Sequence record: OQ718158.1
DNA: 64,000 nt
Strand: one strand, 5' to 3'
DNA from: Escherichia phage vB_Ec-M-J
Shown: piece after piece, positions 51,796 through 63,116 of the stretch
Layout of the letters: each line of letters opens with the position of its first letter
How positions within the stretch are numbered: position 1 is the first letter of the stretch
Notes under the pieces: generated by a model
Told to the model about the DNA's origin: nothing
Database searches by the model: none
What the model saw: the letters and a program-made list of their open reading frames with translations, nothing else
Position numbers and translations under genes: made by a program

Positions 51796-52323
51796 ATGAA
51801 ATACACTGCTCTTAGCCCAACTGATACTAAAGTATGGTTGAGTAATTTGAACAAAACTATTATTTTAACCAAAAAAGTGATATCAACAGCTAATTCATTA
51901 GATGTAAATATCAAGAAGAATGTTCTTAAATATCATCACCGAAGTAAACTTAGTACTTGGTACTCCAATATTTTTTACGGCTTATATGGGATGGATGATA
52001 TTTTAATTGGTACATCATCTGGGTCATGCTTCAGTGCTGGTGGTATGTGCTTTATGGATTTGGGTTTTTCATTATCCGATGAAGAAATCGAGTTTAAACA
52101 ATTCCGTGACAAGTTACTGGGTTCGGGTGATATCAAGTTCTGTACAGAATTAATGGGAGCATGGGACGTTTATGCAGCGAAACCATTTGACATTGAAGAA
52201 TCAGATGTGCTAAACTACCTTCGTGTTCTTAAAATACATTCGAACTGTAAAACCAAATTACAATCCCTAGGAGTATATGATGAAACACTTGACGTGGTTG
52301 AAGATAGCCGAAGTCGTGGCTGA
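51796..52323 (+). CDS. hypothetical protein
   Basis: 175-aa ORF; GAGGA RBS. Confidence 0.55.
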   Translation: MKYTALSPTDTKVWLSNLNKTIILTKKVISTANSLDVNIKKNVLKYHHRSKLSTWYSNIFYGLYGMDDILIGTSSGSCFSAGGMCFMDLGFSLSDEEIEFKQFRDKLLGSGDIKFCTELMGAWDVYAAKPFDIEESDVLNYLRVLKIHSNCKTKLQSLGVYDETLDVVEDSRSRG

Positions 52324-52759
52324 AGAGAGTAAATGCATTTCACAGAAAGTTGGTTGTGTTATTGTTAAAAATAACCGAGTATTGAGTACTGGTTATAATG
52401 GCACTCCATCTAAACAACCTAACTGCTGTGACGCTAATGAGCACTTAGTTAATGGTGGACGTTTCCAAGACTGGGTTAGCGATGACGCAAAGCATGAACA
52501 CCATGAATGGAGTAATATCCATGAAATCCATGCTGAAATGAATGCATTGTTATACAGTTCACCTACCGAACGTCAGGGAGCAACACTTTACACAACGCTG
52601 CAACCATGCTATACTTGTTCTAAGTTGATCGCGGGAAGTGGTATTGCTCGCGTGATTTATCACAAAAGTTATCCTCGCACTCCACCAGAAGCTATTAAAG
52701 TACTGGAAGATGCTGGGATTATTGTAAATTGCATTTATGATAAGGGGTTGGGACTTTGA
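52277..52759 (+). CDS. dCMP deaminase (T4 Cd-like)
   Basis: N-terminus LKIAEVVAEESKC, then zinc-binding HAE and PCYTC motifs and STGYNGTPS, as in T4 Cd. Confidence 0.85.
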   Translation: MMKHLTWLKIAEVVAEESKCISQKVGCVIVKNNRVLSTGYNGTPSKQPNCCDANEHLVNGGRFQDWVSDDAKHEHHEWSNIHEIHAEMNALLYSSPTERQGATLYTTLQPCYTCSKLIAGSGIARVIYHKSYPRTPPEAIKVLEDAGIIVNCIYDKGLGL

Positions 52760-60563: not shown

Positions 60564-60743
60564 ATGAAAATTTTACTTGTACTAATCGCCGTTCTTATGG
60601 TATTATCTTGTTCAGTTAGTAATGGTTCATACATTTACGTATCAGTATTTGAAGAAGCACCAACGAACTGTGTATTAACTCACACTGGTATTGTGTTAGT
60701 TAATGGTAAACCATCAATCGAGTACTTATGTATAGGTGATTAA
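60564..60743 (+). CDS. putative small lipoprotein (59 aa)
   Basis: ORF not in the ORF track; signal peptide MKILLVLIAVLMVLSC with lipobox-like LSC. Confidence 0.45.
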   Translation: MKILLVLIAVLMVLSCSVSNGSYIYVSVFEEAPTNCVLTHTGIVLVNGKPSIEYLCIGD

Positions 60744-60746
60744 ATT

Positions 60747-60980
60747 ATGAAATTTATTTCTATTGCAATTGTTTCAGCACTCATGATGTTAGTAACAGGC
60801 TGTGCATCTAAAGTTCAGGAGGCTGATGCAGAGTTCATTCGCCAGAATTTGACTAAACTTAACTACGATGGCACATTGTATGCTTGCCATGAGATGCGTC
60901 ATGGGCAAGATCTTAATCTCATGTGCAGGAAGATTGTGAATCGCAAACGTCTTAATACTGTTCCGAAGGATGCACAATGA
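60747..60980 (+). CDS. putative lipoprotein
   Basis: signal peptide with lipobox LVTGC at residues 15-19. Confidence 0.55.
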   Translation: MKFISIAIVSALMMLVTGCASKVQEADAEFIRQNLTKLNYDGTLYACHEMRHGQDLNLMCRKIVNRKRLNTVPKDAQ

Positions 60981-61147
60981 AAGAAGTAATTGGTTACAAA
61001 TGTAAAAATTGTGGCAAAGATAAGGGTAAGCATTCAGTACAAGGGATGGCTTGTCCGAATCCAGGACGTGGTAATTTCAGAGGGTTCAGTACTGAAAAGT
61101 CTTACGAACTGGATCATACCAAACCTGTAATGGGTTATAAATTATGA
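60977..61147 (+). CDS. small zinc-ribbon protein (56 aa)
   Basis: ORF not in the ORF track; CKNCG ... CPNPG; ATGA overlaps at both ends. Confidence 0.4.
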   Translation: MKEVIGYKCKNCGKDKGKHSVQGMACPNPGRGNFRGFSTEKSYELDHTKPVMGYKL

Positions 61148-61548: not shown

Positions 61549-62163
61549 ATGACTACATCTGAAAAGTACTGGTGGATTATGGGCCATCCTAAATTCATCA
61601 ACGGAGATATGGTTCCCCCAAGGATTGATATCGAACCACATGATGTGTGTCCAATCACAAACCGCATTGAATCATTTAAAGCTCTGAATACAAAGACACA
61701 ATTTTGGGTAGAATTCATCTCACCTATGTACGTTGAGCAAGATGATGAATGGGTACAAGCACATGATTATGAGTTAGATTGCGGTGGTGATACTTATGAT
61801 GAGGCAATTGATGAACTATACAAAAATGTGCTAAACACTTATGGTGATTACACCCAACAAGAAGCAGACGATACGTTTAATAAGATCCATGCAGTCATTC
61901 CTACATCATCAATTTACAATTCAGCAAAAACAGTTTGGGAAGAACGTCACGGGTGGAGTTCATCTGTAATTGATGCAGAAGCCAAAGAAACAATTCTCGA
62001 AGACATAAAAAATATAAAAAGTACAATAGAAGCCTTGCGTGAATTTATAAAGTCTTGTACAATAGAACAACAGAAAGAGGCAAAGATGCATTTGGAGAGT
62101 GAAGAATGTAAACTTTGGGTTCTAGAGAAATCATTTGAAAAGGGTATAGACTTAGACTTATGA
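61549..62163 (+). CDS. hypothetical protein
   Basis: ATG 61549 after GGAG. Confidence 0.55.
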   Translation: MTTSEKYWWIMGHPKFINGDMVPPRIDIEPHDVCPITNRIESFKALNTKTQFWVEFISPMYVEQDDEWVQAHDYELDCGGDTYDEAIDELYKNVLNTYGDYTQQEADDTFNKIHAVIPTSSIYNSAKTVWEERHGWSSSVIDAEAKETILEDIKNIKSTIEALREFIKSCTIEQQKEAKMHLESEECKLWVLEKSFEKGIDLDL

Positions 62164-62528
62164 ATCGTAAACTTGAGAAACTAATTGAAGAACTACGCCG
62201 GATGCCACCCATCGAGCAAGTGGGGAGCTACAAACGTTATCGTGTGATTGCTCGTGCACTAGATAAGAAAGGTCGTGTATTGGCAACACGTACTAATTCT
62301 TACACACATACTCACCCAGTACAGAAAGGTTTTGCAATCCGTGCTGGGCGTCCACAAGGTGAATTTCTTCATGCTGAAATCTCATGTTTGCTGGCTTCTC
62401 GTGCTGAAGTTCATACTTTGTTGATTGCACGGGTAAGTAAAGATGGTATTCCAGTCCCTGCCAAGCCTTGTGAGATTTGTACGTTGGCAATTCTGGAATA
62501 TGGGGTAAAAGAAATTATTCACACATGA
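62160..62528 (+). CDS. cytidine/deoxycytidylate-deaminase-fold zinc protein
   Basis: HAE ... PCEIC zinc-binding signature in a 122-aa protein. Confidence 0.6.
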   Translation: MNRKLEKLIEELRRMPPIEQVGSYKRYRVIARALDKKGRVLATRTNSYTHTHPVQKGFAIRAGRPQGEFLHAEISCLLASRAEVHTLLIARVSKDGIPVPAKPCEICTLAILEYGVKEIIHT

Positions 62529-62746
62529 AGAAAATTGAACGCTACCAAAACCATACAGTTGTGACTGAAGATGATATATTTTATTATTATATTTTCAGAC
62601 CCACACACTGTTTACAAATAACGACATATGAGAATGGTAAATTCAAAGATGTCAACTTCCATATAACAGATTTAGCAAAATATTCCAGTACTGAATACTT
62701 TAGTAATTTAGTATTTGTGTACTGTATACCACATCATAACATTTAA
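62525..62746 (+). CDS. hypothetical protein
   Basis: ATG 62525 overlapping upstream TGA. Confidence 0.45.
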   Translation: MKKIERYQNHTVVTEDDIFYYYIFRPTHCLQITTYENGKFKDVNFHITDLAKYSSTEYFSNLVFVYCIPHHNI

Positions 62747-62756
62747 GGAGTCAACT

Positions 62757-63116
62757 ATGGCTAAAACTATTTCTTTAAAAAATGAAAATGTAGGACAACG
62801 CAAAGATGGGTTCTTTGGATTCTCATGGACAACATTGTTCTTTGGTCCGTTCCCTGCATTGTTTCGTGGTGACTTTATTACGTTCATCGGTGCATTTGTA
62901 ATTTACTTCATCCTCAACGCAGTGTCTTTTTGGATTGTGGGTACAGTTGCAATGGTCGTGTGGGCATTTCTTTATAATAAGTACTACACTGTGAATCTCA
63001 TCAAGAATGGGTATAAATTCAATGGTACACATGAAGAAAATGCTGAAGCTGCAATGGCGTTACAAATTGATCTAAACAAAAACAATACTGTAGATAAAAA
63101 CAAAGAACCAGAATAA
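62757..63116 (+). CDS. hypothetical membrane protein
   Basis: AAGGAG RBS; two hydrophobic helices. Confidence 0.5.
   Translation: MAKTISLKNENVGQRKDGFFGFSWTTLFFGPFPALFRGDFITFIGAFVIYFILNAVSFWIVGTVAMVVWAFLYNKYYTVNLIKNGYKFNGTHEENAEAAMALQIDLNKNNTVDKNKEPE

Follow-up and report, generated by a model that had tools for sequence, protein, structure and literature searches.

A minimal deaminase of a jumbo coliphage points to a distinct, effectively virus-exclusive clade of the cytidine deaminase superfamily

Why does a phage that encodes a canonical deoxycytidylate (dCMP) deaminase carry a second, smaller protein of the cytidine deaminase (CDA) fold, and on what would that protein act? The question is raised by a 64,000-nucleotide stretch of Escherichia phage vB_Ec-M-J (record OQ718158.1), which is referred to here as the window. 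The second protein, the small deaminase, is encoded by an open reading frame (ORF) of 122 codons plus a TGA stop at 62160..62528 on the + strand. The canonical dCMP deaminase of the Cd/ComEB type (Cd; 52277..52759, + strand; 160 amino acids [aa], isoelectric point [pI] 6.7) served as the paralogue for comparison. Escherichia phages EC.P1 and Turkey3 match the window at 98% identity, and 121Q, PBECO4 and Sharanji do so at 86-87%, indicating that the window comes from an Asteriusvirus-type jumbo coliphage. By the comparisons given below, the small deaminase belongs to a distinct clade of the CDA superfamily that has been pared down to a four-stranded core.

The small deaminase ORF is a real gene under strong purifying selection, as indicated by a dN/dS of 0.05 against the orthologues of Sharanji (gp468) and Turkey3 (XMR01135); phage 121Q has an orthologue as its gene 490. 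An earlier note, made from the letters of the DNA, had reported an H-A-E and a P-C-E-I-C motif in this 122-aa frame, and both were confirmed on the + strand. H71-A72-E73 (62370..62378) supplies a zinc ligand and the catalytic Glu on helix 2, and P103-C104-E105-I106-C107 (62466..62480) supplies two Cys zinc ligands on helix 3. The assignment of these residues also stood when 151 diverse family members (30-50% identity) were aligned: His is present in 150 of the 151, Glu in all, Pro in 150 and both Cys in all. Asn46 (codon 62295..62297, + strand), which follows strand 2 and is found superfamily-wide, is conserved in 149 of the 151 and is invariant in alignments A1, A2 and A7; in related CDA-superfamily enzymes this Asn touches the sugar or base. 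Since all catalytic residues are invariant, the small deaminase is almost certainly an enzyme.

The AlphaFold2 model of the small deaminase (predicted local distance difference test [pLDDT] score, 90.9) showed the CDA alpha/beta fold, with both motif helices packed against a mixed beta-sheet. The modelled order is helix 1 (3-14), strand 1 (28-34), strand 2 (40-45), an inserted helix opened by the THPxQ motif (53-61), the HAE helix (72-80), strand 3 (86-92), the R..G..AK loop, the PCxxC helix (105-114) and strand 4 (118-121), so that the sheet has only four of the five strands that are usual for it. The protein passed the gathering cutoff of PF00383 marginally (25.8 versus 25.0 bits) and matched PHROG_174 at 1.8e-11, and its family profile aligned to the Cd family with 98% probability in hhalign. 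These independent results show that the deaminase assignment does not rest on a chance match of motifs. The small deaminase looks like a folded, catalytically competent, zinc-dependent hydrolytic deaminase.

The product of 52277..52759 proved to be a canonical dCMP deaminase, as the earlier note had proposed. It matched PF00383 at 4e-22, PHROG_174 at 4e-62 and the ComEB model at 5e-19, and it shares about 44% identity with cellular dCMP deaminases. Translation probably begins at its second Met (52280). In Sharanji and in UniRef this Cd (window 52277-52759; L006, 1072-1551) is labelled 'tRNA-specific adenosine deaminase', although it fits dCMP-deaminase/ComEB models far better than TadA models. 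The small deaminase matched none of the curated NCBIfam models (ComEB TIGR02571 and others) at E ≤ 1, and its best profile matches in the PDB were to dCMP deaminases (3.5e-8 to 8e-5). With the Cd enzymes (S-TIM5 4P9C, T4 1VQ2 and the window Cd) it shares the superfamily and the zinc and catalytic motifs. The spacing from the Asn after strand 2 to HAE is similar to that of the S-TIM5 dCMP deaminase, and the Tyr/His that closes strand 4 falls opposite the conserved Tyr of 'V-Y' in Cd.

The hallmarks of Cd were absent from the small deaminase. In place of G-Y-N-G-[TA]-P after strand 2 the family has N-S-Y-x-K-T-H-P, and in place of H-A-E-x-N-A the small deaminase has H-A-E-I-S-C, with Ala, Ser or Asp at the Asn position in the family; in the Cd alignment (A4), N41-G42-T43 and N89 are invariant. 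The segment H50-T51-H52-P53-V54-Q55 (62307..62324, + strand) represents a family-specific [KR]-T-H-P-x-Q motif, conserved at 84% (K), 77% (T), 92% (H), 91% (P) and 87% (Q) in the 151 sequences, and T-H-P-x-Q was not found in the Cd family by either the Cd alignment or hhalign. Arg91 (62430..62432, + strand), a family-specific basic residue at the end of strand 3 (148 of 151), opens an 11-residue loop, R-x4-G-x4-A-K, which has no Cd counterpart and lies opposite a 10-residue gap in hhalign. Compared with Cd, the family carries an extra loop of 10-11 residues before PCxxC and, in the small deaminase, a pI of 9.8 versus 6.3-6.7.

The earlier note had described the small deaminase as lacking the N-terminal region of dCMP deaminase. 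This was wrong, since helix 1 is modelled at residues 3-14 and residues 21-122 align with Cd residues 17-132 in hhalign, where coverage stops at about Cd residue 132. What is truly missing is the last 30 or so residues of Cd, which comprise helix 4 and strand 5 with the conserved Tyr132, together with about half of the residues inserted after strand 2 and before the HAE helix. The small deaminase also has no allosteric-site insert. Strand 4 is its last element, and the chain closes right behind it with H121-T122-stop (62520..62528, + strand). Tyr132 of the window Cd corresponds to the aromatic pocket-wall residues Y153 of T4 and Y457 of CDADC1, whose role is described in PMC12088426. Without helix 4, strand 5 and an aromatic wall residue, the small deaminase would have no C-terminal lid.

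The CDA superfamily is divided into enzymes with a C-terminal hairpin, such as Cdd and blasticidin-S deaminase, and enzymes of the helix-4 division, to which TadA and the dCMP deaminases belong (PMC3239186). By sequence the clade is nearest to the dCMP deaminases, but the length of its loop and the topology of strand 5 place it nearer to Cdd and blasticidin-S deaminase. It shares with the latter two a similar size (about 125-135 aa for Cdd and blasticidin-S deaminase) and the same spacing of about 29 residues from Glu to Pro-Cys, and the best Foldseek matches of the small deaminase in the PDB were 1WN5 and 3MPZ. In the model of a tailed relative (P0206; pLDDT 87), the tail forms strand 5 (125-130) after strand 4 (117-122) and a 2-residue turn, without helix 4. 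This antiparallel hairpin of strands 4 and 5, modelled in the tailed relative and resembling that of Cdd and blasticidin-S deaminase, is not present in the small deaminase. The Cdd model TIGR01354 scored 12.6 bits against a cutoff of 113.65, and the Cdd motifs C-A-E, N-x-E and P-C-G-x-C-R-Q are replaced by H-A-E, N-S-Y and P-C-E-I-C. Unlike Cdd, the small deaminase has His rather than Cys as its first zinc ligand, and it is strongly basic.

TadA enzymes carry the motifs D-P-T-A-H-A-E and L-E-P-C-x-M-C. The family has [IQ]-[YF]-L-H-A-E and A-K-P-C instead, and the NCBIfam TadA model gave no match for the small deaminase. The HAE/PCxxC core is common to TadA/ADAT2 (Staphylococcus aureus 2B3J, TadA-8e 6VPC and Mycoplasma capricolum 6L2M), the family pattern 'HAEI.A[LI]' resembles 'HAEIMAL' of TadA, and the M. 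capricolum tRNA deaminase gave a PDB profile match at 2e-6. The C-terminal RNA-binding helices of the helix-4 division are missing from the small deaminase, which has no residues after strand 4. Compared with the polymorphic-toxin deaminases (MafB19, DddA and SsdA), no model match, N-terminal delivery domain or adjacent immunity gene was found. The comparison with known families that the earlier note had suggested thus upheld membership in PF00383, but the hallmarks of dCMP deaminase, TadA, Cdd and toxin deaminases were all absent.

Other phage and viral single-domain enzymes of the CDA fold are mSCD-B5, the XP-12 deaminase and PBCV-1 bi-DCD (7FH4). Their documented substrates range from nucleotides to single-stranded DNA (ssDNA), and their substrate sites are cationic. 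Unlike the small deaminase, they have about 140-155 aa and the full dCMP-deaminase fold, and they are linked to thymidylate-synthase homologues and cytosine-modified genomes, a linkage not seen at the small-deaminase loci. Activity on ssDNA is on record for phage homologues of 'dCMP deaminase', and mSCD-B5 accepts ssDNA as well as 5-methyl-dCTP (bioRxiv 10.1101/2024.12.05.627091).

The family to which the small deaminase belongs was defined as a clade in this analysis, and a published name for it was not found. The clade is described by the signature N-S-Y-x-[KR]-T-H-P-x-Q ... L-H-A-E-I ... R-x4-G-x4-A-[KR]-P-C-x-x-C ... [YH]-[TS] at or near the C terminus, a length of 96-140 aa and a pI above 8.5. 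The small deaminase agrees with the signature throughout, except for His50 in place of Lys50. Near-invariant positions in the 151 members are N46, H52, P53, H71, A72, E73, R91, P103, C104 and C107; K50, T51, Q55, A59, G63, L70, G96 and A101 are conserved at 70-90%, and positions 121-122 are mostly [YH]-[TS]. About 40% of the members stop within 2 residues of T122, and the remainder carry a tail of 10-13 residues. Many members of about 100 aa lack helix 1 and end in E-H-T.

An exhaustive profile search returned 4,689 representatives at 50% identity with E < 1e-3 and 1,174 with E < 1e-10, of which the best 150 are all 96-166 aa long. A second database gave 1,658 clusters at 90% identity with E < 1e-8, nearly all metagenomic and without names, and the few names in that database were assigned by pipelines and conflict with one another ('TadA', 'deoxycytidylate deaminase', 'hypothetical'). 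A structure search of BFVD yielded nothing but family members without a name and entries labelled generically as 'deoxycytidylate deaminase'. More than 526 contigs with the family were confirmed by a pattern scan of IMG/VR. Named members include phiKZ gp260 (with H-S-E), Aeromonas phages, Xanthomonas phage DES1, Cobetia phage Carin-5, RaK2-like jumbo phages of Klebsiella, Salmonella, Cronobacter, Erwinia and Yersinia, and the T4-like cyanophages S-CAM7 and ACG-2014f. When 185,579 bacterial and archaeal species were scanned with one genome per species, a single peptide pattern, which makes the scan less than exhaustive, gave 14 matches, all in short contigs of metagenome-assembled genomes and none in an isolate genome. 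This indicates that the family is effectively virus-exclusive and not prophage cargo, whereas Cd has close cellular homologues.

The existence of the gene is already annotated; GenBank names it 'CMP/dCMP-type deaminase domain protein' or hypothetical. No paper was found that recognizes the clade as separate or tests any member. The literature on Asteriusvirus, RaK2, phAPEC6 and Sharanji discusses the gene nowhere beyond its listing as 'dCMP deaminase', and such a phage clade is not described by Iyer et al. 2011 (PMC3239186). The phiKZ gene (PHIKZ260) has its own primary transcription start early in infection (PMC8244752), and nothing beyond its use as an example of an early start site was found for it in the literature.

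The family is strongly basic. Among 311 members the median pI was 9.68 (5th-95th percentile, 8.8-10.2), 97% were above 8.5 and the median net charge was +9, compared with a median pI of 6.3 (5.6-7.7) for 120 homologues of the window Cd and 7.7 for neighbouring ORFs of the same size. The small deaminase itself has a pI of 9.84 and a charge of +8.9, versus 6.7 and -0.9 for the window Cd.

The small deaminase and Cd coexist in about eight unrelated phage lineages. In the window the two genes lie 9.4 kb apart; in a T4-like contig (L007) that is not related to the window phage they are 3.2 kb apart; and among 136 family loci a canonical Cd was found within 8 kb of the family gene in about six further lineages. 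In the IMG/VR phage contigs L086 (4117-5017) and L055 (7968-9228) the two genes are direct or near-direct neighbours, less than 500 bp apart (155 and 490 bp, respectively). No neighbour family is conserved; the commonest, which has no assigned function, occurs in 11 of 56 dereplicated loci, and an operon partner was consequently rejected as a functional clue. A gene for a GGACT/AIG2-like gamma-glutamylcyclotransferase lies 0.7-1.3 kb from the small deaminase gene in two unrelated phages (L003, 6032-6376, from Xanthomonas phage DES1; L010/L011, 5291-5752), which may be due to chance.

The family gene is often found near tRNA genes. Two samples of family loci (the 136) were compared with 80 Cd control loci fetched in the same way. 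A tRNA gene was present within 8 kb at 49 of 136 family loci and 17 of 80 control loci (P = 0.03), and within 1 kb at 20 of 136 and 4 of 80, respectively (P = 0.04); tRNA density was 154 per Mb at family loci and 58 per Mb at control loci. This enrichment is modest; the second sample shows it less strongly, and related loci inflate it. The family gene is embedded in same-strand tRNA arrays at L042, L080, L085/87/89, L211 and L230. A tRNA with adenosine at position 34 (A34), tRNA-Arg(ACG), occurs in only four large arrays adjoining family genes, with the L080 copy 300 bp downstream, which disfavours a plain TadA role. Most tRNA sets near the family gene hold Arg(UCU/UCG) and no A34 tRNA, and the tRNAs of Asteriusvirus are Thr, Asn, Met, Ser(ACU), Arg(UCU), Ser and Gly, with Arg(ACG) not among them.

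Some of the tRNA genes are unusual in themselves. In Sharanji, outside the region matching the window (L094, 19374-19562; record positions 95373-95561), two neighbouring tRNAs, both with a long variable arm, have unusual anticodons: a 90-nucleotide 'tRNA-Met(CAU)' and a 92-nucleotide tRNA-Ser(ACU) with A34. An A34 tRNA is odd in a split codon box (AGY Ser/AGR Arg). Phage contigs with the small deaminase also carry suppressor-type tRNAs with the anticodons UUA and CUA and phage-borne transfer-messenger RNA genes (L026, 15909-15979; L028; L029; L041, 5716-5791; L045; L048; L052; L053).

What is shown here concerns the fold, the conservation of the motifs, the identity and distribution of the clade, its charge and the statistics of its genomic context; the substrate and role of the small deaminase are inferred. 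The reading that we favour, tentatively and at somewhat under an even chance, is that it acts on a polynucleotide, with tRNA or another RNA likelier than ssDNA. A polynucleotide is favoured because the C-terminal lid is missing, the high charge is conserved, Cd is present alongside and the gene is in part associated with tRNA arrays. Phage 'dCMP deaminase' homologues that act on ssDNA offer a precedent. The small deaminase would bind a strongly anionic, extended substrate and would deaminate a base within it; the likeliest target would be a cytosine (or adenine) of tRNA or of some other RNA, and ssDNA would be a less plausible one. Catalysis would follow the standard CDA mechanism, in which zinc held by His71, Cys104 and Cys107 activates water and Glu73 shuttles a proton. 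The small deaminase would then not be a supplier of dUMP for thymidylate synthesis.

Several points weigh against a polynucleotide substrate. The closest solved proteins by sequence are dCMP deaminases, those of S-TIM5 (3.5e-8), Streptococcus mutans (3.6e-6) and T4 (1.7e-5). Identifiable neighbours belong mostly to replication and nucleotide metabolism (RNase H, DNA polymerase, NT5C, ThyX, PhoH and nrdD/nrdG). There is no tRNA gene within the window, and the tRNA cluster of Sharanji is about 195 kb from its small deaminase gene. An unspecific DNA deaminase would mutate the phage's own genome, and we know of no characterized phage RNA-editing deaminase. The TadA of Escherichia coli (pI 7.1) is not basic, so charge is no marker of tRNA deaminases. 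Deaminases of the CDA fold that are specific for triphosphates also accumulate Lys and Arg (PMC12088426). The proposal of the earlier note that the protein modifies nucleic acid rather than taking part in nucleotide metabolism therefore held in part. That it is not merely a second dCMP deaminase is indirectly supported by the absent dCMP hallmarks, the co-occurrence with Cd, the family-wide basicity and the tRNA arrays, which are about 2-3 times more frequent than for Cd. A nucleic-acid substrate does not follow from these findings: the nearest solved proteins by sequence are dCMP deaminases, and a deaminase at the (d)CTP level would explain the charge about equally well (PMC12088426).

Such a free-nucleotide deaminase, converting dCTP to dUTP, CTP to UTP or a modified dCTP and using its charge to bind the triphosphate, is the main rival reading and only slightly less likely. 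It would complement the dCMP-specific Cd by shifting the pyrimidine pool towards T for a genome of 34% G+C (33.9% in the window). Different substrates for the two enzymes would explain why they co-occur, the nearest sequence relatives are dCMP deaminases, and the gene lies in replication and nucleotide-metabolism modules, sometimes next to Cd. Lys/Arg clusters bind the triphosphate in CDADC1 and the XP-12 deaminase (PMC12088426), and CDA-fold dCTP deaminases are known from PBS1, PBCV-1 (bi-DCD) and mSCD-B5 (PMC12697855; bioRxiv 10.1101/2024.12.05.627091). Yet a charge of +9 over about 100-120 residues exceeds what a triphosphate pocket needs, and the pocket-closing helix 4, strand 5 and aromatic wall of all characterized nucleotide-level members are missing, as are the GYNG-P and HAExNA hallmarks. 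Enterobacterial hosts already own an unrelated enzyme, Dcd, and phiKZ reportedly encodes a dCTP deaminase; the embedding in tRNA arrays would also be left unexplained. The polynucleotide and nucleotide readings are not mutually exclusive in vitro, as the case of mSCD-B5 illustrates. A second, streamlined dCMP or (deoxy)cytidine deaminase for salvage, redundant with Cd, is improbable. The names dCMP deaminase and cytidine deaminase given by the GenBank and JGI pipelines agree with it, as do the place in PHROG_174, the top Foldseek matches in the PDB (blasticidin-S deaminase, Cdd and human DCTD) and the resemblance to tetrameric Cdd in the length of the loop before PCxxC and the strand-4/5 hairpin of tailed relatives. 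Redundancy is, however, hard to reconcile with a canonical Cd in about eight lineages, with the absence of the Cd hallmarks (GYNG-P, HAExNA and the C-terminal Tyr) and of those of Cdd, to which the low TIGR01354 score also speaks, or with a pI of 9.7, which is atypical of dCMP and cytidine deaminases. Salvage enzymes are moreover universal, whereas the family is virus-exclusive.

A phage orthologue of TadA, converting A34 to inosine in tRNA-Arg(ACG), would be a special case of nucleic-acid editing and is very unlikely. JGI labels many members 'tRNA(Arg) A34 adenosine deaminase TadA', the M. capricolum enzyme is the second-best PDB profile match, and tRNA-Arg(ACG) does occur in the four large adjoining arrays. 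The TadA model is nevertheless unmatched, the C-terminal helices, DPTAHAE and LEPCxMC are missing, A34 tRNAs are usually not nearby, and the Asteriusvirus set has Arg(UCU) rather than Arg(ACG). Hosts already have an essential TadA, and host tRNA-Arg(ACG) is always available. That the protein is a small basic nucleic-acid-binding or regulatory protein that merely keeps the deaminase scaffold is hardly credible. Tiny size and high charge, with some members even without helix 1, would suit such a role, but across the 151 members the His, the Glu, the Pro and both Cys show little or no variation, whereas the pseudo-deaminases ADAT3 and the N-terminal domain of CDADC1 lose catalytic residues (PMC12088426).

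The small deaminase gene is flanked on both sides by ATGA overlaps. The TGA of the upstream ORF (61549..62163, + strand; 204 aa; phrog_16370, a family of unknown function) overlaps the deaminase ATG, and translation of the two genes is probably coupled within a shared operon. The ATG of the downstream ORF (62525..62746, + strand; 73 aa; without a family match) overlaps the deaminase stop. The gene therefore lies inside a tightly packed operon of small genes without assigned functions. A scan for promoters and terminators found no more sites than in shuffled sequence, and the PADLOC models of defence and anti-defence systems gave zero matches. At 43% G+C, versus 34% for the window, the gene is among the 0.3% most G+C-rich 369-nucleotide stretches of the window. 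Its G+C content at third codon positions (GC3) is only 0.29, which led to the rejection of the recent horizontal transfer that the high G+C had suggested; the excess is attributed to a composition rich in Arg, Ala, Gly and Pro.

Two genes 3' of the deaminase, the ORF at 62757-63116 (119 aa; phrog_4915, function unknown) has a long hydrophobic stretch and is probably a membrane protein. Two adjacent small ORFs at 60564-60743 (59 aa) and 60747-60980 (77 aa) have lipoprotein-like signal peptides (...V-L-S-C-S and ...V-T-G-C-A). The 56-aa ORF at 60977-61147, which matches phrog_10623 (function unknown), contains C-x-x-C ... C-P and may be a small zinc ribbon. In Asteriusviruses, PhoH, a Sir2-type deacylase and Clp subunits are encoded upstream of the small deaminase, and nrdD/nrdG lie 1.7 kb downstream, just beyond the window end. 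The corresponding region of about 30 kb in the Turkey3 record (70-99 kb, equivalent to about 37-64 kb of the window and beyond) is rich in auxiliary genes, including those for RNA ligase 1, polynucleotide kinase, DNA ligase, a MazG-like nucleoside triphosphate pyrophosphohydrolase, three Clp protease subunits, a Sir2/CobB deacylase, PhoH and nrdD/nrdG.

Extended to the whole clade, the polynucleotide reading would make its members phage-exclusive, stand-alone polynucleotide editors of about 100-120 residues, the smallest known, used early by virulent phages to edit tRNA, other RNA or ssDNA. This wider proposal, which is less likely than not, would take in T4-like cyanophages as well as phiKZ and the RaK2-like jumbo phages, and the purpose might be, for example, a retuning of decoding or the evasion of tRNA-targeting defences. 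If nucleic-acid editing is true, the family would be the first widespread phage-encoded RNA- or DNA-editing enzyme, and its 100-120 residues would offer an unusually compact base-editor scaffold. If the substrate is (d)CTP or another nucleotide, many phages would run two non-redundant CDA-fold deaminases, and the family would define a minimal CDA catalytic core without helix 4, strand 5 and, in some members, helix 1. In either case, thousands of entries labelled 'dCMP deaminase', 'TadA' or 'hypothetical protein' represent one distinct clade, of which phiKZ gp260, transcribed early from a start site of its own, is a tractable member in a model phage.

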